DNA of 64,000 nucleotides from a virus. Location: positions 1 to 64,000 of the IMG/VR virus record IMGVR_UViG_3300009448_000011; one strand, written 5' to 3'. Below, piece by piece: positions 19,655-44,067 of the stretch. Numbering within the stretch: the first letter of the stretch is position 1; the number at the start of each line of letters is the position of its first letter. The notes under the pieces were generated by a model, which saw only the letters and a list, made by a program, of their open reading frames with translations, searched no databases and was not told where the DNA came from. A program made the translations under genes and the position numbers.

Positions 19655-22600
19655 ATGAATAAATCTAATAACAATCCTAACGAACATTTTTTTAACGATT
19701 TTATTAATGAAATGACGGCGGCAAATCTACAATCACAAGGCAACATGTCTATAATTGAATTTGCTAACAGAATTATTTTTAATAATGATCCTGACTTTCA
19801 ACTTTTTCCAACACAAAAAGCAATATTAAAATCATTTTATAAAGAACCTTTAACTCAACAAGAACAAGATATTTTAGTTGATTGGGTAAAAGAAGAACGT
19901 TCTACTTGGGTTCATGATAGAAAATATATTTCTTTAGTTTTAGAAGCTGGTAGACGCGCAAGTAAAGCACTTGATTTAAATACGCTAATTGAGACTCCTG
20001 AAGGAACTAAAAAATTTAGAAATATTAAAAAAGGAGATTATGTATTTGGGGTTAAGGGAACTCCTGTTAAAGTATTAGAGGAAACTGAAATATTTCATAA
20101 TCATAATATATATGAATTAACGTTTGATGATGGTTCTAAGGTGAAATGTGATGAGGGTCATCTATGGAAAACTAAGGACAACGCTTCTAAAAAAATAGGT
20201 AATTCTACAATAAAAACAACTAAAGAAATAGTTAATAGTTTATTTATAAAAAGAAAAGACGGGACATTAGAACCTAATCATAGTATTGAATTAGCAAAAC
20301 CTTTAAAATACTCAAAACAATCTTTATTAATACATCCTTGGGTACTAGGAGTTTGGTTAGGAAATGGAACTTCTCGCAAAGGGGAAATTACAGCTAGTAA
20401 AGAAGATATTTATTTTATAATGAATAAATTTAATAAACTAGGTTACTACGTTACAGGGGAATCTAGTAATGATTATACATATAAATTTTATTCTGAAAGA
20501 TTAAATAAAGAATTACAGCAATTAAATTTATTAAAAAATAAACATATTCCTACTAAATATCTTTATTCTTCTTTAGCACAACGCATTCATTTATTAAAAG
20601 GATTAATGGATACTGACGGAACAGTATCTAAAAAAGGTAAAACGACTTTTATAAATACCAATTTTAATTTAACAGAAAGCGTGTTTAAACTTGCCGTATC
20701 TTTAGGGGCTTATGCAACTAGAGCTAAATATCCAAGCAGTTATATTACAAATAATACTAAAACATCTTCAAAAATCTATGAAGAAATAAGCTTAAGATCT
20801 GATATTTTTCCTATATCTGTACCAAGAAAGATAAAAAGATATACACCTTGTACAACTGACAATAACAAAAGATTTATTACATCTGCAATTTTAATACCTA
20901 CCTTACCTGTTAAGTGCATCACTGTTGAAGGTGGTTTATTTTTAATAAGTAATAATATTATTACTCATAATTGTAATTCTTCTTCCGCAATTATTGCTAC
21001 TACTAAAGGTGATATTACTTATGGTGAATTACATGAATTACTTTCTAAAAAACAAAAAGTAGGTATTTATACTTATGATTTTAGTAAAAATATAGTTAAA
21101 AGTTTTTTGACGTATGATATTAAAAGTGAGTTAAATGCAGTAGAGCAAACATATTTAGTAAGAACAGAAACAGGAAAAGTAGAAATAGTAAATGAGAATC
21201 ATCCTTTTCTTACATGGGGAGGAAAAAATAAACCTGTTCCATATTGGAAACAATTAAAAGATCTAAAAAAAGGAGACTTAATTGCAACATCTACGCATCT
21301 ACCTTTATTTGGGACCCACAAATTAGACAAAGACTATTTAGAAATAATAGCAATTGCGTTAACTGCGTATTCTCTGGAAGCAAATCCTCAAGGTAAAAAA
21401 GATTTTATACCTAAAATTGTTAAGTATTTTAATATAGGTATTATAAAGAAGGATAAATTTAAAGAGACACTACGTTCTTATTTAAAAAACGTAATTGACA
21501 GTCTTAGTACAGAATTATTAGGAAGTTTAGATAAAGAAAGTTTGCATACTTTATTATTTTATATTTTAAAATATGGAAGAATGCTTATGGATGAAACTGC
21601 ATTCAGAGAGAATGATGGATACAATCAAACGTTATGTATAAAGATTAGATTAGAAAAATTTGTAGGACTAATTGCCCGTCAATTTTTAAAATTTGGAATC
21701 ACTACTGATTGTGTTCCTCAAGATAAATTCAAAAAGCAATTTTGGATATATAATACAGAGAGTATACACGTACTACTAGCCACGTTTGGGTATGACATAT
21801 TTAAAGGGGAAGAATTCATAAGAAAGAAATTATGTAAAAAGAACAAAAGTTTAGTTAGTAATGGATCAACAAAAGAAAATGTATTACCTAGGGGGATACC
21901 GCATAGTTGCAAAGGAACAAATGAACCTAGCAAAAGAGGTCACAAAAATATACTACAAAAGTATCATGAAGAAAATAATACGTTAACACTGCAATTATAT
22001 GATTGGTGTACTAATGAAATTAATTGGGAATATATAGGTGAAATCACGCCATATGCAATTGAACAAACTATTGCGTTAGAAGTAGCAGATACTCATGTAA
22101 TAGGAAATGGTATTATTTCACATAATTCTACAATGGCATCTATTATTGCTTTAAAAGAATTTTATGACTTAATAATTTTAGATAACCCTCATAAACAGTA
22201 TGGAATTTTAAGTGGATCTCCTATTGCTATATTAGTAATGGCTCAATCACAAGCTCAAGTAAAAGAAACAATATTTGCTGCTATTAGAGGTTACGCAAAT
22301 AATTCTAGATATTTTACTGCGTTACAAAATAAAGGCGAAATAGAAATATTATCTGAAGAAATTAGATGTTATAGCAAGAATGTATCTATCTTTGCAAAAC
22401 ATACTAATAGTAAATCGTTGGTAGGGTATACACTTAAATGTATGTTACTAGATGAAGTTGCTAGATTTGAGACAATAGGAGAAGAAGGTAAAAATAAAGC
22501 TTTTGAAATTTGGGAAAATATTGGTGCGGGGGGTTCTACTTTTGGGCATCATTTTAAAAAAGTGGCTATATCTTCTGCTTGGGAACCTAATGATCCTATA

Positions 22601-24673
22601 GAGATTTTATATAATAGAGCCCAGAGAGATCCAAATACTCTTGCTTTTAAACTTACTACTTTTCAAGTTAATTTAAATTTAAAAAAAGGAGTTACTCCCG
22701 TTATTGTTTCTGATTATACTAACGATTTTATTAAAGCTCGTAGAGAATATGAAGGTATACGTTTTACTAAATTTAATACTTTTATTGATATAGAAAATCT
22801 AGATAAAGCAGCTACCTGCGTTAGTATTATTGATGCAATTCCTTCTCAAATAGATACTAAGACTAACACAGGATATAAGTATTATGCAGGTGTAGATATT
22901 TTAAGAATAACTCCCAATACACCAGAAGATTCTGTTAGTTTTATACATGTAGATCCTGCTTTAAAAAAAGATAGTGCAGCTTTAGCAATTGCTCGCACAG
23001 TATTGGTAGAAGATACATGGAAAATACAAATAGATGCGTTACTAAAATGGGAACCTCATACCGACAATAAAGGTTTAAAAAGAATAGTTTCTTTTATTGA
23101 TATAGAAGATAAACTAAAAGAAATTATTTCTAAAAGACGTGTCGGTAAAGTAACTTTTGATCAGTGGAATTGTTTACAAGAAGATTCTTTAATTTTAACT
23201 AAAAACGGCTTTAAACCACTTAATACTTTGCAATTACATCAAGAAGTAATATCTAATAAAGGTGTTAATAAAATAGTTAATTTAGAAAAAAAAGAGAATA
23301 TACCTACATTAAAAATAACTACAGAAAAAGGGTATGTGATTGAAGGAACATATAACCATCCTTTATTAACAACAGACAATATTTTTCAAGAATTACAAAA
23401 TTTAAATATTGGGGATAAGTTAAGATTAAATATTCCGGTAGTAACTACTGTTAATAAACAACCTAGTTTATATCAAGAACATGAAGCGTTAGTTTTAGGT
23501 TATTTAATAGCTAAAGGACATTGGGGAGATTTTAAAGATAATATAAGATTTTCTAATCTAGAAGAAGACGTTATAAATGATTATAAATTTAGTATTAAGC
23601 AACTAATAAGAACACAACCTCATGTTTATTCTAGAGTCTCTAGTAATCCTAATAATCCAATTTTGAAAGAAGTATCTGTAACTAATAAAAAGTATTATTG
23701 CAAACTAACTAAAGATTTAGATTTACAAACAGAAGATTTTAATAAAAAAATTCCCAACTATATATTTACTGCTACAAAAAAAGAAATTGGATTATTAATT
23801 TCTGGATTGTTTGAAGGAAAAGGAACTATATACATACAAGAAGCCACTTTAAAAAAATCAGCAAGATTATTTATAGAGTTAACTACTGTTTCTAAAAAAC
23901 TCAGTATTCAATTACAACAATTATTATTATATTTAGGTATTAAGTCTACTCGTAACAAATATTATAAAAAACCTTATTTTGAAGATAATATTATTTATTA
24001 CAAAGTAGTTATTTCAGACTATGATTTAATACATTTTAAAAATGCAGTAGGATTTAGGGGCTACTTAAAAAGCAATGAATTAGAAAAAGCTATTTTGTTA
24101 TTAAATACTAATACAGTAGATAATTTTAACGATAGAATTATTTCTATCAAAAAAACTATGTCTACAATTATGCATATGGAGGTTTCAGGAGATCATACTT
24201 ATTGTTCAGAATTTATAAACCACAATAGTCAATCTCTTATACAAAAATTAAATGCTCAAGGAATTGATGCTCAAACAGCTTCGTGTAGTCGAGAAAATCA
24301 ATTTATTTATTTCACTTTATTTAGAGATTTATTAGCGCATAATTATATAGTATTACCTAAGGATAGTTTATGGTCTAACAATGCAATCACAGAATTATCT
24401 GAATTAGTATTACGGCCTAATAGACAAATAATACATCCAACTGCGGGTAAAGATTTAGCGGATGCTATTGTTAATGCGGTATATCAATGTCATCAACATA
24501 TGATCCAAACTGGATTAACTTTAAATATAGGATTAAGTGCAGAAAATATTCCTTCTGTAGGATTAACGCCTCTTGCCCATATTAATGTAACAAATAGTAA
24601 AACTAGTAAAGAACGCTTAAAATTAGGCACTGCCATAGATAGACTTTATAATACTAGAGCCAGGCGTATTTAG
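19655..24673 (+). CDS. terL: Terminase large subunit precursor with three inteins (mature protein about 600 aa)
   Basis: Q motif PTQKAIL, Walker A GRRASK|ST, Walker B LLDEVARF, ISS coupling motif, nuclease HVDPALKKDSAAL, FDQWN|S, KDLADA. Confidence 0.9.
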   Translation: MNKSNNNPNEHFFNDFINEMTAANLQSQGNMSIIEFANRIIFNNDPDFQLFPTQKAILKSFYKEPLTQQEQDILVDWVKEERSTWVHDRKYISLVLEAGRRASKALDLNTLIETPEGTKKFRNIKKGDYVFGVKGTPVKVLEETEIFHNHNIYELTFDDGSKVKCDEGHLWKTKDNASKKIGNSTIKTTKEIVNSLFIKRKDGTLEPNHSIELAKPLKYSKQSLLIHPWVLGVWLGNGTSRKGEITASKEDIYFIMNKFNKLGYYVTGESSNDYTYKFYSERLNKELQQLNLLKNKHIPTKYLYSSLAQRIHLLKGLMDTDGTVSKKGKTTFINTNFNLTESVFKLAVSLGAYATRAKYPSSYITNNTKTSSKIYEEISLRSDIFPISVPRKIKRYTPCTTDNNKRFITSAILIPTLPVKCITVEGGLFLISNNIITHNCNSSSAIIATTKGDITYGELHELLSKKQKVGIYTYDFSKNIVKSFLTYDIKSELNAVEQTYLVRTETGKVEIVNENHPFLTWGGKNKPVPYWKQLKDLKKGDLIATSTHLPLFGTHKLDKDYLEIIAIALTAYSLEANPQGKKDFIPKIVKYFNIGIIKKDKFKETLRSYLKNVIDSLSTELLGSLDKESLHTLLFYILKYGRMLMDETAFRENDGYNQTLCIKIRLEKFVGLIARQFLKFGITTDCVPQDKFKKQFWIYNTESIHVLLATFGYDIFKGEEFIRKKLCKKNKSLVSNGSTKENVLPRGIPHSCKGTNEPSKRGHKNILQKYHEENNTLTLQLYDWCTNEINWEYIGEITPYAIEQTIALEVADTHVIGNGIISHNSTMASIIALKEFYDLIILDNPHKQYGILSGSPIAILVMAQSQAQVKETIFAAIRGYANNSRYFTALQNKGEIEILSEEIRCYSKNVSIFAKHTNSKSLVGYTLKCMLLDEVARFETIGEEGKNKAFEIWENIGAGGSTFGHHFKKVAISSAWEPNDPIEILYNRAQRDPNTLAFKLTTFQVNLNLKKGVTPVIVSDYTNDFIKARREYEGIRFTKFNTFIDIENLDKAATCVSIIDAIPSQIDTKTNTGYKYYAGVDILRITPNTPEDSVSFIHVDPALKKDSAALAIARTVLVEDTWKIQIDALLKWEPHTDNKGLKRIVSFIDIEDKLKEIISKRRVGKVTFDQWNCLQEDSLILTKNGFKPLNTLQLHQEVISNKGVNKIVNLEKKENIPTLKITTEKGYVIEGTYNHPLLTTDNIFQELQNLNIGDKLRLNIPVVTTVNKQPSLYQEHEALVLGYLIAKGHWGDFKDNIRFSNLEEDVINDYKFSIKQLIRTQPHVYSRVSSNPNNPILKEVSVTNKKYYCKLTKDLDLQTEDFNKKIPNYIFTATKKEIGLLISGLFEGKGTIYIQEATLKKSARLFIELTTVSKKLSIQLQQLLLYLGIKSTRNKYYKKPYFEDNIIYYKVVISDYDLIHFKNAVGFRGYLKSNELEKAILLLNTNTVDNFNDRIISIKKTMSTIMHMEVSGDHTYCSEFINHNSQSLIQKLNAQGIDAQTASCSRENQFIYFTLFRDLLAHNYIVLPKDSLWSNNAITELSELVLRPNRQIIHPTAGKDLADAIVNAVYQCHQHMIQTGLTLNIGLSAENIPSVGLTPLAHINVTNSKTSKERLKLGTAIDRLYNTRARRI
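19967..20971 (+). mobile_element. Intein TerL-1 (335 aa), Ala-start class 3 type with LAGLIDADG domain
   Basis: ALDLNTLIETPEG start; block B CDEGHLW; block F VKCITV; end IITHN (W-C-T triad); LGVWLGNG / LKGLMDTDG. Confidence 0.9.
20972..22126 (+). mobile_element. Intein TerL-2 (385 aa), Cys-start, directly abutting intein TerL-1; degenerate endonuclease region
   Basis: CNSSSAIIATTKG start; block B VNENHPF; end GNGIISHN followed by extein S. Confidence 0.85.
23171..24226 (+). mobile_element. Intein TerL-3 (352 aa) in the nuclease domain
   Basis: CLQEDSLILTKNG start, GTYNHPLL, end EFINHN|S; LAGLIDADG-like LGYLIAKG / LISGLFEGKG. Confidence 0.9.
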
Positions 24674-41826: not shown

Positions 41827-44067
41827 TTATTGTATCCATTTTAAATACGAAGGATCTATAAAACAACATTTAATTAAATCTTCAGGAGTTCCTACGATAA
41901 CAAGTCCTTCGGGAGTTTTAACTCTACTCAAAGCAGTATAAATCATGCCACTTTGTTTAGATAAGAATCTTTGTCCCTCGCCGTTAATACATAATTGAAC
42001 TTTATCTAAGGTAAGTCCTTGAACTCTGTGTATAGTAGCCGCGCTAGCTAATCTAGCTCTCATAACAGTTAACTTTCCTATGGCTTCTTGTTTGTTTGCA
42101 AAACGATTTTTACTAAAATCAAAATGAAGTAATTCTTGAGGTTTTAAAAATATTTCTTTATTTTTTCTAAGTAATGAAAGATATAAAGTATTTTTCCATA
42201 AATCAGTAACTATGGCAGTATCCCCGTTAGCAAACCCTTCTTTTAAATTATTATATAATAATTGAACTAATGAACCTTTTTTAACTTCTAGCTTTAAAGG
42301 AAAATTATTCCAAGTAGGATGGGGCACACCTGTTAAAGTTGCATAATAACACCTACTTTCTCCTCGTAGTCTTTCAAGACAAATTTTATTATGCATTTCT
42401 ACTTCATTATTTGTTGAAAAAAAAGTAGTACCTCTAAAATAACTATCTACTTCTGGCACAAAACTAATATTATTTTTAAGCCAATCTAAACATTCATGAA
42501 TTTTTCCTTTTCTTATACAACTTAAAGCTTCTATAAACTCTTTATTATCTTGTCTTTTAACTTCTGTTAAATACTTTATTTCAAATCTTTGCCAACATTT
42601 AGCTCTAAAAATAGGGGCCCCTTCTACTGGGGCTAATTGGGCTAAATCTCCACTAATTAATAATCCTAAATCTTTATTATAGTCTTTATTAAATCTATCT
42701 AAAGATAAAACAATTAAATCTAATACGCTGGCGCTTATTAAGGAAATTTCATCAATTACTATATTATTATATTTCTTAGCAATCTTACTTAATGATTTAT
42801 CTATTGTTTTTGTACAAAACGCTCTTAATAAACTTTCTGCATTAAAATATCCTAACGCTGAATTAATAGTGGTAGCTTCTGTAGCATCTCTAATAGATCC
42901 TAAATTTAAAGCAGCTATCCCTGTGGTAGCAGTTCTTAACGCAAATTTAGGATCTTCTTGTATTTTTGAGTTTATATAATAACTATTATGTGTGACTACA
43001 AAGTTTTCCACTACATATGTGTGTAAAGGATTTTCTACCTGTATACATCTGCCATCTTTTTTTCCTACATAAATTATGTCAACTATTTTTTTATTTAAAA
43101 TATCTCCTATTTTTCCTTCTATAAATAAGTCACTTTTTCGTTGTAATGAAAATATATTTAAATTAATTCTAATAGAAACATTGTATTCTGTTGGAAAATT
43201 TTCATTACCTATATATTGTTCTAATTTAGCTATACCCCCTAACGATCTAACTAAAAACATTACATCATTTGCTAATTTATTAGATGTAGTATTAAATGTC
43301 ATTTTTTTAACTTTAGAAGGGCTTAAATTAATATCTCCCCTACTATCCATTAATCCTTTTAATATTTTTAATCTATCTGAAATTGACGAATATAAATAGT
43401 TATTAGGAATAAATTTACAGGAATTATAAAACCACAATAAACCTAAATCTGAAAGATATTGTTTTATTTCACTAGATAGCGTAAATGTACCTGAAGACTT
43501 ATTTAAAGGTGTTTGTAATAATGTAGTTTTAATATTTAAAGGTAATAAGTTATCAAAAATAAGTTTAATTTCTATTGCATCTTTTAAAGGACAACTAACT
43601 GTTATTTGTTCCTGAAAATTTCCATTTCCTAACATATATCCTAATATATAAGGATGTAATGTTAACAGTTGTGCGTTTATATTAATAGGACTACATAAAG
43701 GAATAGAATATTTATAGCTTTTTATTTTATTATCACTTTTAAAATCTTTTAACATTTCTTTTGTAGAAAGCACTTTATACTTATTTCTCTTTAATGATTT
43801 TAAGTTTGTTGTTTGTACTTTCCATAAATGATCTTCACAAGCTTCTATAAACGTGTCGTCATTAAATACTACTTTATATATATTTAAGTCTTTTCCTTCC
43901 CATATATTTAAAATTTTAGTGGGATTTCCATCCTCACATATTACTTCACTATTAATTGTTAATTCTTTATTCTTAATATATCCTTCAGGCGTTAACACTA
44001 ATGTTTCATTTGTTAGTAATTTTCCAGTTCCTGCTGAACCAAATAAAGCGTTTAATCTAGTTTCCAT
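41827..44067 (-). CDS. Pif1/RecD-like SF1B helicase precursor with intein (mature protein about 401 aa)
   Basis: GSAGTGK|S, ATTGIAA, IDEIS, GDLAQLAPV, LTEVKRQ, ANGD, TIHRVQGLTL, YTALSRV. Confidence 0.9.
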   Translation of the reverse strand: METRLNALFGSAGTGKLLTNETLVLTPEGYIKNKELTINSEVICEDGNPTKILNIWEGKDLNIYKVVFNDDTFIEACEDHLWKVQTTNLKSLKRNKYKVLSTKEMLKDFKSDNKIKSYKYSIPLCSPININAQLLTLHPYILGYMLGNGNFQEQITVSCPLKDAIEIKLIFDNLLPLNIKTTLLQTPLNKSSGTFTLSSEIKQYLSDLGLLWFYNSCKFIPNNYLYSSISDRLKILKGLMDSRGDINLSPSKVKKMTFNTTSNKLANDVMFLVRSLGGIAKLEQYIGNENFPTEYNVSIRINLNIFSLQRKSDLFIEGKIGDILNKKIVDIIYVGKKDGRCIQVENPLHTYVVENFVVTHNSYYINSKIQEDPKFALRTATTGIAALNLGSIRDATEATTINSALGYFNAESLLRAFCTKTIDKSLSKIAKKYNNIVIDEISLISASVLDLIVLSLDRFNKDYNKDLGLLISGDLAQLAPVEGAPIFRAKCWQRFEIKYLTEVKRQDNKEFIEALSCIRKGKIHECLDWLKNNISFVPEVDSYFRGTTFFSTNNEVEMHNKICLERLRGESRCYYATLTGVPHPTWNNFPLKLEVKKGSLVQLLYNNLKEGFANGDTAIVTDLWKNTLYLSLLRKNKEIFLKPQELLHFDFSKNRFANKQEAIGKLTVMRARLASAATIHRVQGLTLDKVQLCINGEGQRFLSKQSGMIYTALSRVKTPEGLVIVGTPEDLIKCCFIDPSYLKWIQ
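42985..44019 (-). mobile_element. Intein in helicase P-loop (345 aa), Leu-start class 3 type
   Basis: Starts LLTNETLVLTPEG after GTGK; ACEDHLW; GRCIQV; ends VVTHN|S; LGYMLGNG / LKGLMDSRG. Confidence 0.85.

Follow-up and report, generated by a model that had tools for sequence, protein, structure and literature searches.

The window analysed here, a 64,000-nt stretch of a viral record in IMG/VR, contains a large terminase (TerL) gene of an uncultured cyanophage-like virus. Its open reading frame (ORF, 19655-24673) is uninterrupted and encodes a precursor with three inteins, two of which directly follow one another within the Walker A motif. An overview of the features of this gene is given in Table 1. 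Removal of all three inteins leaves a spliced extein of 600 aa that is collinear from end to end with the annotated 'terminase' gp118 of Microcystis phage Ma-LMM01 and with its homologue in Microcoleus phage My-WqHQDG (41-44% identity), including the ATPase and nuclease domains and a contiguous Walker A motif. The Pfam terminase models gave no match to the ORF in a local scan, so the family name rests on the annotated homologues. Intein 3 is encoded in the same TerL ORF, outside the tandem.

Table 1 Features of the TerL gene and its inteins (positions refer to the window; a slash marks an insertion point)
Feature	Position	Strand	Evidence
TerL precursor ORF, 1672 aa, three inteins	19655..24673	+	ORF listing
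Walker A, N-terminal half (AGRRASK), with Lys104 at -1 of intein 1	19946..19966	+	gap-free alignment
Intein 1, 335 aa, class 3 type with LAGLIDADG domain	19967..20971	+	phmmer, family alignment, Pfam
Block B of intein 1, D62-x-x-H65-x-W67 (Trp of the WCT triplet)	20150..20167	+	aligned to DAQHQW of 6bs8
Cys317 of intein 1, block F position 4, predicted initiating nucleophile	20915..20917	+	family alignment, 6bs8
End of block G of intein 1, Thr333-His334-Asn335	20963..20971	+	THN invariant in family
Cys440 (TGT), by position both +1 of intein 1 and the first residue of intein 2	20972..20974	+	
Intein 2, 385 aa, class 1, degenerate LAGLIDADG-fold domain	20972..22126	+	alignment, AlphaFold2, Foldseek, Pfam
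Ser825, nucleophile at +1 of intein 2; also the Ser in GK[S/T] of Walker A	22127..22129	+	alignment
Middle extein, remaining ATPase domain and start of nuclease domain	22127..23170	+	alignment to intein-free terminases
Intein 3, class 1 with LAGLIDADG_3, 352 aa, at WN/SQS	23171..24226	+	Pfam 2.5e-13, gap-free extein
C-terminal extein and stop codon	24227..24673	+	ORF listing, extein alignment

At the tandem the ORF reads ...AGRRASK/ALDLN...IITHN/CNSSS...IISHN/STMAS..., with intein 1 at residues 105-439 and intein 2 at residues 440-824. Both fill the Lys/Ser boundary of Walker A, and zero extein residues lie between them. When the extein is aligned to the terminases of Ma-LMM01 and My-WqHQDG, which lack inteins, neither insertion site shows a gap. 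The Walker A motif of the spliced protein, AGRRASK/STMASII, is aligned to CGRRGGK/SVLASIC, and intein-free homologues also read AGRRGSK/S. Since the alignment is gap-free at this site, no residue is missing or spare between Lys104 and Ser825. A sequence-only reading of this DNA had described two back-to-back inteins at one site with a common cysteine, the first of class 3 type (Ala1, W/C/T triplet) and the second of class 1 (Cys1), both at the same Lys/Ser boundary. This anatomy is borne out, including the zero spacer, and the intein-free terminases uphold the K/S junction with no extra residues between K and S.

Two other ways of dividing the region were considered and rejected. Cys440 is not an extein residue, which follows from the gap-free extein alignment and from alleles with a single intein: those that carry intein 2 only read K/CN..., and those with a class 3 intein only read ...THN/S. 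A single nested intein is ruled out as well. Each of the two inteins has its own complete set of A, B, F and G blocks, and the same alignment and single-intein alleles contradict nesting.

In phmmer searches, intein 1 hit both 6bs8, the class 3 Msm DnaB-1 intein, and gp41-1; its Pfam matches to Hom_end/LAGLIDADG_3 are weak. Its first residue is Ala (GCA, 19967-19969), without a Cys, Ser or Thr nucleophile at this position. In the 15 relatives compared, residue 1 can be A, S, L, M, F or C, which fits a non-catalytic position, and the W, C and T of the triplet are invariant. Block B reads D62-E-G-H65-L-W67, in which the Trp is invariant in the family; the D62xxH65xW67 numbering is identical in PMC6195587. 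The PVKC sequence of block F is invariant in 15 family members (PLKC in one) and aligns with VRC of 6bs8 and LIC of gp41-1. The terminal THN is followed by Cys440, the position at which the class-3-only relatives have Ser. By its sequence, intein 1 bears every mark of a class 3 intein as the class has been defined (block B Trp, block F Cys, block G Thr; PMC5050341, PMC6195587), and initiation by the block F Cys, by way of a branched thioester, is predicted. In its LAGLIDADG domain the first catalytic Asp is changed to Asn (GNG) and the second motif, DTDG, is intact; with Asn at the first position, the copy in this phage may have lost homing.

Intein 2 has the key residues Cys1, N74-x-x-H77, His375 and His384-Asn385, followed by Ser825. 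Cys1, His77, His375, His384-Asn385 and the +1 Ser are conserved across 27 intein 2 sequences. Its block B is of the form NxxH, in which Asn74 takes the usual Thr position family-wide and His77 is invariant, and position 4 of block F is Ala, where class 1 inteins usually have Asp. The Pfam Intein_splicing model scored 45.6 bits in the ORF; intein 2 by itself reached 31.4 bits, below the cut-off of 35.8, and the Pfam LAGLIDADG models gave no match in it. A phmmer search of intein 2 against PDB sequences was empty, so a fold search was needed. The AlphaFold2 model (pLDDT 82.7, pTM 0.85) has a HINT plus LAGLIDADG fold, for which Foldseek returned full-length matches to PI-PfuI (best, 3e-11), TliVMA, PI-TkoII and PI-SceI; mini-inteins matched the HINT part. 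The LAGLIDADG helices end in ...IALTAYS and ...ILKYGRM, and the family has no conserved acidic residue there. The homing nuclease is therefore probably dead, both catalytic acidic residues being lost, though its fold has been kept. In an AlphaFold2 model of the whole tandem (pTM 0.54) the domains are confident; the last strand of intein 1 before Cys440 has a pLDDT below 50, though the alignment there is sound.

The zero-spacer tandem is found in 16 further metagenomic TerL proteins on other contigs from JGI, ENA and Logan assemblies (39-63% identity), always with the junction ...(T/S)HN/C(N/F).... With the window included, the upstream partner is a full class 3 intein in seven tandems, a mini class 3 intein in seven and an unrelated class 1 intein of 481-483 aa in three, whereas the downstream partner is intein 2 in 17/17. 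The frames are open in all seventeen alleles. Single-protein scans of IMG/VR with intein 1 or intein 2 returned no close relatives. The TerL loci recovered by a profile scan numbered four for IMG/VR and nine for the metagenome contigs; the tandem is absent from all of them, and their alleles are empty, carry intein 2 only, or have an intein at a site two residues upstream.

The recurrence of the identical zero-spacer junction in 16 proteins on other contigs argues that the tandem is neither due to chance nor to the chimeric assembly of one contig. The sequence is a metagenome-assembled viral contig, in which two single-intein alleles might have been joined, but the other 16 proteins share the conserved junction and are too diverged (39-63% identity) for one artefact, and a chimera can be dismissed for practical purposes. 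It is also very unlikely that one or both inteins are splicing-dead and that the TerL allele seen here has lost its function and is left over from a defective virus. Such decay would fit a contig rated 62% complete, the D-to-N change in the nuclease of intein 1 and the non-canonical block B and block F residues of intein 2. Against it, the 5-kb ORF is intact and every splicing nucleophile and His/Asn is present; the odd residues of intein 2 occur family-wide (n=27), including in single-intein alleles of an essential gene; and each of the 17 tandem alleles has an open frame.

The two positions of the tandem differ in their history. Intein 2 is present in 27/27 members of one extein clade (support 98), and its tree mirrors the extein tree. 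Because it occurs in all members and co-diverges with the extein, it is the resident. The upstream slot is vacant in some proteins and occupied by an intein of one of three types in others; its state changes at least 12 times on the tree. For example, P0005 and P0011 have exteins that are 99.7% identical and a 100% identical intein 2, yet unrelated upstream inteins. Between P0003 and P0006, the upstream inteins are 72% identical, whereas the identity is 60% between the exteins and 40% between the two copies of intein 2. Both LAGLIDADG Asp residues are present in the upstream inteins of P0003 and P0014 (class 3 type) and of P0005 and P0012 (class 1 type). Inteins related to each of the three upstream types are found at Lys/Ser in TerL proteins without intein 2 (P0130, P0162, P0298, P0028). 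Taken from these comparisons, the conclusion is that mobile inteins repeatedly land directly ahead of the resident intein 2. The sequence-only reading had proposed that two intein lineages invaded the identical position. The identity of the Lys/Ser boundary stands, but the downstream intein, with its degenerate nuclease, has long been resident and is inherited vertically; for the upstream slot, the trees and the P0005/P0011 pair indicate repeated entry by inteins of at least three types.

Mimicry of the homing site by the start of the resident (CNSSSAIIA of intein 2 versus STMASIIA of the C-extein), which might account for homing into an occupied site, was also considered. Empty and occupied alleles agree in only about 8 of their first 15 bases, a similarity too low to support such a claim.

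The reading that we favour, with a probability of roughly 0.78, is that of an intein stacked on an intein: a class 1 intein with a degenerate nuclease has long been resident in the TerL of one clade of Ma-LMM01-like cyanophages, and a newcomer of class 3 type sits exactly between Lys104 and its Cys1. The resident is therefore the C-extein of the newcomer, and its Cys1 is the newcomer's +1 nucleophile. Entry into the occupied site would probably be due to homing nucleases whose recognition depends mostly on the conserved half-site in the N-extein and which accept the first codons of the resident.

Every residue needed for splicing is kept, by sequence, in both inteins 1 and 2. Formation of an active TerL, with the P-loop AGRRASK-ST restored, would require two splicing reactions, and either order would be chemically possible. 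If intein 1 is removed first, Cys317 would attack the carbonyl of Lys104, the acyl group would pass to the thiol of Cys440 and Asn439 would cyclise; the resulting Lys/Cys precursor is the product made by the intein-2-only relatives. If intein 2 is removed first, Cys440 and Ser825 would join Asn439 to Ser825, which would yield a ...THN/Ser context as in the class-3-only relatives. The first of these orders is slightly favoured, because the exchange of a thioester to a thiol is easy and because the N-to-S shift of intein 2 at Asn439-Cys440 would activate the very bond that is cleaved by Asn439 cyclisation. The reverse order would carry the risk of dead-end cleavage at Asn439-Cys440. The earlier suggestion that splicing must be ordered or competitive is a reasonable one on chemical grounds.

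The double role of Cys440 would also permit a different course, in which inteins 1 and 2 act as one composite splicing unit. The N-extein would be relayed from Cys317 to the thiol of Cys440, which corresponds to the linear thioester intermediate of intein 2, and from there to Ser825; Asn824 would cyclise, the inteins would leave as a single fused product of 720 aa, and cyclisation of Asn439 would be unneeded. The positions of the residues allow this chemistry, Cys440 being both +1 and Cys1, and with intein 2 downstream in 17/17 tandems the acyl flow would always have one direction. Nevertheless, the terminal His-Asn is strictly conserved in every upstream tandem intein, as expected if Asn cyclisation is used; this argument is weak, the upstream inteins having arrived recently. 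We regard such a composite unit as unlikely. The same low expectation attaches to a fuller version, in which the relay runs without a re-formed peptide bond and the 5' end of the resident has turned into a homing site used specifically by a guild of intein lineages, at least three in number. If true, a selfish protein-splicing element would here be hyperparasitised by others of its kind.

The sequence-only reading had further raised the possibility of gating. The stacked inteins would then form a post-translational switch, in which conditional splicing of one or both, for instance redox-dependent by way of their several cysteines, renders the terminase active only late in infection or when conditions are permissive. 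Class 3 P-loop inteins can be redox-sensitive, as in the Cys-Cys trap of Msm DnaBi1 (PMC6195587). Intein 1 has, besides Cys317, a Cys61 that adjoins the block B Asp, and tandems persist in many lineages. However, close relatives exist without an upstream intein, and since the intein in this slot is often gained, lost or swapped, its turnover fits that of a selfish element better than a selected regulator. A switch is accordingly considered improbable, and the stacking of a newcomer on a resident is preferred.

Inteins are normally described as single inserts with host protein on both sides. Here, one intein borders directly on another, which serves as its flank, and the two active sites have a cysteine in common. 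This provides a natural system for asking whether splicing centres that share a residue act independently, in order, or by direct hand-over of the acyl group. An occupied homing site is usually assumed to be immune; the tandem allows one to ask whether a homing element can enter such a site and what form competition takes when several lineages of inteins use the same hot spot. Near-isogenic pairs, with the same TerL and resident intein and a different upstream intein or none, are ready comparisons for this purpose. Scarless stacked orthogonal inteins could also interest protein engineers.

No published description of this layout was found in the literature searched, which mostly did not cover subscription journals, so an earlier report may exist. 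A similar arrangement is known from RNA. Twintrons are introns within or abutting introns that are removed by sequential RNA splicing. As in the window, one self-splicing element flanks another and removal is multi-step; in contrast, twintrons rely on RNA chemistry without a common catalytic residue, whereas the tandem relies on protein chemistry.

Among terminases, the mycobacteriophage TerL1-a and TerL1-b inteins comprise class 1 and class 3 inteins in the TerL Walker A motif (Kelley et al. 2016, PMC5050341). TerL1-a occupies the site termed 'classic', which lies between the Thr/Ser and the invariant Lys before it, and splicing and homing-nuclease activity are demonstrated for some of the mycobacteriophage TerL inteins. 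The TerL1-a and TerL1-b sites are described there as one residue apart and as separate insertion groups, whereas the window has two inteins at one boundary. No account of abutting zero-spacer inteins was found in PMC5050341; in the window, the +1 residue of the first intein is Cys1 of the second. The TerL of cyanophage Mic1 likewise needs two protein-splicing events (PMC7156551). Its inteins are located in different domains, ATPase and nuclease, an arrangement that corresponds to intein 3 of the window rather than to the tandem.

The DnaB of M. smegmatis is similar in that it combines a class 3 intein in the P-loop, DnaBi1 (6bs8), with a class 1 intein, DnaBi2 (PMC6195587). Intein 1 and DnaBi1 share D62xxH65xW67, the block F Cys and THN. 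The DnaB inteins differ from the tandem in that they lie far apart, one in the P-loop and one in the H4 motif, are bordered on either side by ordinary exteins, and neither is the extein of the other (PMC6195587). The 'double inteins' of haloarchaeal MCM are also comparable: two inteins are close to each other, the homing of one interacts with the occupancy of the other, and co-homing of nuclease-less partners has been raised as an idea (PMC10643990). Compared with the haloarchaeal MCM inteins, those in the window have no spacer between them, and one partner is a fixed resident while the other slot turns over.

The window is the initial 64 kb of an IMG/VR viral contig of 105.7 kb with a completeness rating of 62%. 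Its large terminase (TerL) precursor is interrupted by three inteins (see table). At the Walker A motif, the order of the ORF is AGRRASK, an insert reading ALDLN...IITHN, an insert reading CNSSS...IISHN, and STMAS. Among public phage proteins, the closest are two terminases without inteins, from Microcoleus phage My-WqHQDG and Microcystis phage Ma-LMM01, which match in three collinear pieces at 41-44% identity. The three inserts were removed by script, and the resulting 600-residue extein was aligned to both terminases. Zero gaps were found at either insertion site: EAGRRASK/STMASII aligns with ECGRRGGK/SVLASIC and EAGRRGSK/SAMASII at Walker A, and FDQWN/SQSLIQ with FDSYQ/SQSTIQ at the intein 3 site. 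Inteins 1 and 2 therefore jointly occupy one codon boundary, between the Walker A Lys and Ser, and abut with zero residues between them, as the sequence-only reading had stated.

Features of the TerL locus, related sites in the window and types of abutting inteins at Lys/Ser
Feature	Window position (nt)	Strand	Proteins	Details
TerL ORF	19655-24673	+		Single open frame, 1672 aa
Intein 1	19967-20971	+		First insert, Lys/Ser of Walker A
Intein 2	20972-22126	+		Second insert, directly after intein 1
Intein 3 (C...NHN/S)	23171-24226	+		Third insert, same ORF, at WN/SQS, C-terminal part
Low-pLDDT stretch of tandem model	~20939-20968			Model residues 335-344, intein 1 residues 325-334
Start of intein 2	20972-21000			CNSSSAIIA
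Start of C-extein	22127-22153			STMASIIA
WEN[VI]G/[ST]GG site	near 22528			~Residue 134 of middle extein; empty
Intein in helicase-like ORF	42985-44019	-		Class-3-type, at P-loop, inside ORF 41827-44067
Tandem, upstream full-length class 3 intein			n=7	P0001 (window), P0002, P0003, P0006, P0014, P0016, P0121 (fragment)
Tandem, upstream class 3 mini-intein, 146-152 aa			n=7	P0007, P0008, P0009, P0010, P0011, P0013, P0023
Tandem, upstream unrelated class 1 intein, 481-483 aa			n=3	P0005, P0012, P0018; both LAGLIDADG Asp intact

As defined in PMC5050341 and PMC6195587, class 3 inteins lack a residue-1 nucleophile and carry a Trp/Cys/Thr triplet at B:12, F:4 and G:5. Intein 1 has sequence matches in the PDB to gp41-1 and to the class 3 DnaB-1 intein of M. 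smegmatis (6bs8). Its D62-x-x-H65-x-W67 is aligned with DAQHQW and its PVKC (Cys317) with VRC of 6bs8; it starts with Ala and ends with Thr333-His334-Asn335. Judged by its sequence, intein 1 has all four marks of class 3, in agreement with the earlier assignment from the W-C-T triad and Ala start. When 15 relatives from the same terminase clade are aligned, the W, C and T of the triplet show no variation and residue 1 varies among A, S, L, M, F and C, as expected if it is non-catalytic. A LAGLIDADG domain is situated between the splicing blocks. Its second motif (DTDG) is intact; the first reads GNG instead of the GDG of relatives, so that the homing nuclease of this copy may be impaired. The intein 1 relatives in P0003 and P0014 (P-numbers denote TerL relatives from the protein search) retain both Asp residues.

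Intein 2 had no match among PDB sequences, and its Pfam match was sub-threshold when it was scanned alone, while the Intein_splicing model scored above cut-off in the whole ORF. Across the 27-member family, Cys1, the block B N-x-x-H (His77), the block F His, His384-Asn385 and the +1 Ser are conserved around a hypervariable central region (overall length 324-493 aa). The full length of an AlphaFold2 model built on this family (pLDDT 82.7, pTM 0.85) matches PI-PfuI, TliVMA, PI-TkoII and PI-SceI, and its HINT part matches mini-inteins. The modelled fold thus places intein 2 among the class 1 inteins that carry a LAGLIDADG-fold domain, which bears out the class proposed from Cys1. Both LAGLIDADG helices end without an acidic residue, in this copy and in the family alike, and the nuclease is therefore probably dead. 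The start of intein 2 (CNAASAII or CQSASSII in relatives) is similar to that of the C-extein, weakly so at the DNA level (~8/15 bases). This likeness could be chance, block A composition or a trace of occupied-site recognition by upstream inteins.

A chimeric assembly of two single-intein alleles could produce the same arrangement. The whole ORF was searched against 5.8 billion proteins, yielding relatives from JGI, ENA and Logan assemblies, which were dissected by BLAST against six parts of the window protein before their junctions were read. Two abutting inteins at Lys/Ser were found in 17 proteins, the window's included, always joined as [TS]HN/C[NF]. This recurrence in proteins from other assemblies rules out the chimera. 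The downstream partner is of the intein 2 type in 17/17 tandems, and another 11 proteins carry intein 2 without an upstream partner. Relatives of each upstream type are also found alone at Lys/Ser, with a +1 Ser, in more distant intein-2-free terminases (P0130, P0162, P0030, P0298, P0028).

Intein 2 is present in 27/27 members of one extein-tree clade (SH-aLRT 98), and its own tree has the same groupings with longer branches. Both trees thus indicate that it is vertically inherited together with the TerL gene. The upstream slot is empty or holds a full class 3, a mini class 3 or a large class 1 intein, with at least 12 changes among these four states within the clade. Extein identity between P0005 and P0011 is 99.7% and intein 2 identity 100% over 393 residues; upstream, the former carries a 483-aa class 1 intein and the latter a 147-aa class 3 mini-intein. 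The same swap is seen between P0009 (mini), P0012 (large) and P0004 (none). Between P0003 and P0006, the upstream inteins (72% identity) are more alike than the exteins (60%) or the intein 2 copies (40%), an indication that the upstream element has moved horizontally. Of the proposal that two intein lineages invaded the identical P-loop position, the sharing of Lys/Ser by two classes stands, and the invasion is to be recast as a resident downstream intein beside a changeable upstream slot. The anatomy and the evolutionary pattern of the tandem are well supported.

An intein already in place is usually considered to give immunity to homing, since it splits the nuclease target. The N-extein half-site at Lys/Ser is highly conserved, and the codons after Lys differ modestly between the empty (TCT ACA...) and occupied (TGT AAT...) alleles, with ~8/15 bases matching. 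A nuclease reading chiefly the upstream half-site could cut both alleles alike.

Both inteins have to be removed for AGRRASK and STMAS to be joined in mature TerL; the mechanism and order of splicing given below are inferred, and so is any regulatory role of the tandem. By position, Cys440 (ORF numbering) is both the +1 nucleophile of intein 1 and Cys1 of intein 2, the dual role first ascribed to it. In the AlphaFold2 tandem model (md1aa34ed2444), every domain is folded confidently; the last strand of intein 1, adjoining the shared Cys, has pLDDT <50 despite sound alignment, and the first strand of intein 2 >90. If intein 1 acted first, the N-extein would be taken by Cys317 and handed to the Cys440 thiol, followed by Asn439 cyclisation, giving the Lys/Cys-intein 2 precursor also made by the 11 intein-2-only relatives. 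If intein 2 acted first, Ser825 would be ligated to Asn439, placing intein 1 in the ...THN/Ser context of class-3-only relatives. Either route would leave each intein in a context familiar to its own lineage, which may explain why stacking is tolerated. We lean towards intein 1 acting first, since thiol-thioester exchange proceeds readily onto Cys and the N-to-S shift of intein 2 would make the Asn439-Cys440 bond a thioester, inviting premature Asn439 cyclisation and dead-end cleavage. Less conventionally, splicing could run as a relay: with the N-extein on the Cys440 thiol, the first intermediate of intein 2 would already be formed, and the N-extein could move directly to Ser825, so that both inteins would be released as one piece.

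Further inteins were observed in the window and in TerL relatives. Intein 3 is a class 1 intein of 352 aa with a LAGLIDADG_3 domain and is patchy even among near-identical relatives, being present in P0005 and absent from P0011. The intein of the helicase-like ORF (GTGK/LLTNET...VVTHN/S) begins with Leu, carries DHLW, GRC and THN, and is related to intein 1 (30% identity, E 4e-31), so that two P-loops of one genome are occupied by class 3 inteins related to each other. Intein-2-like inteins are also located two residues upstream, at G/SK of the same Walker A, in P0032, P0027 and loci L011, L012 and L014. P0032 (residues ~102-959) has inteins at both G/SK and K/S with only Ser-Lys between them (...ISHN/SK/CCSED...), a second form of extreme P-loop crowding. 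A distantly intein-2-like intein is found at WEN[VI]G/C...HN/[ST]GG in P0015, P0016, P0024 and P0033.

Intein stacking is a real, recurrent variant of intein architecture and apparently undescribed: no description of abutting inteins with zero extein residues was found in the full-text literature covered, which excludes most subscription journals. Class 1 as well as class 3 inteins are well documented at the P-loop of phage terminases, and the mycobacteriophage TerL1-a and TerL1-b sites lie one residue apart (PMC5050341). Two inteins of different classes are found within one protein in M. smegmatis DnaB (PMC6195587), neighbouring inteins interfere in haloarchaeal MCM (PMC10643990), and the two inteins of cyanophage Mic1 TerL are located in different domains (PMC7156551).
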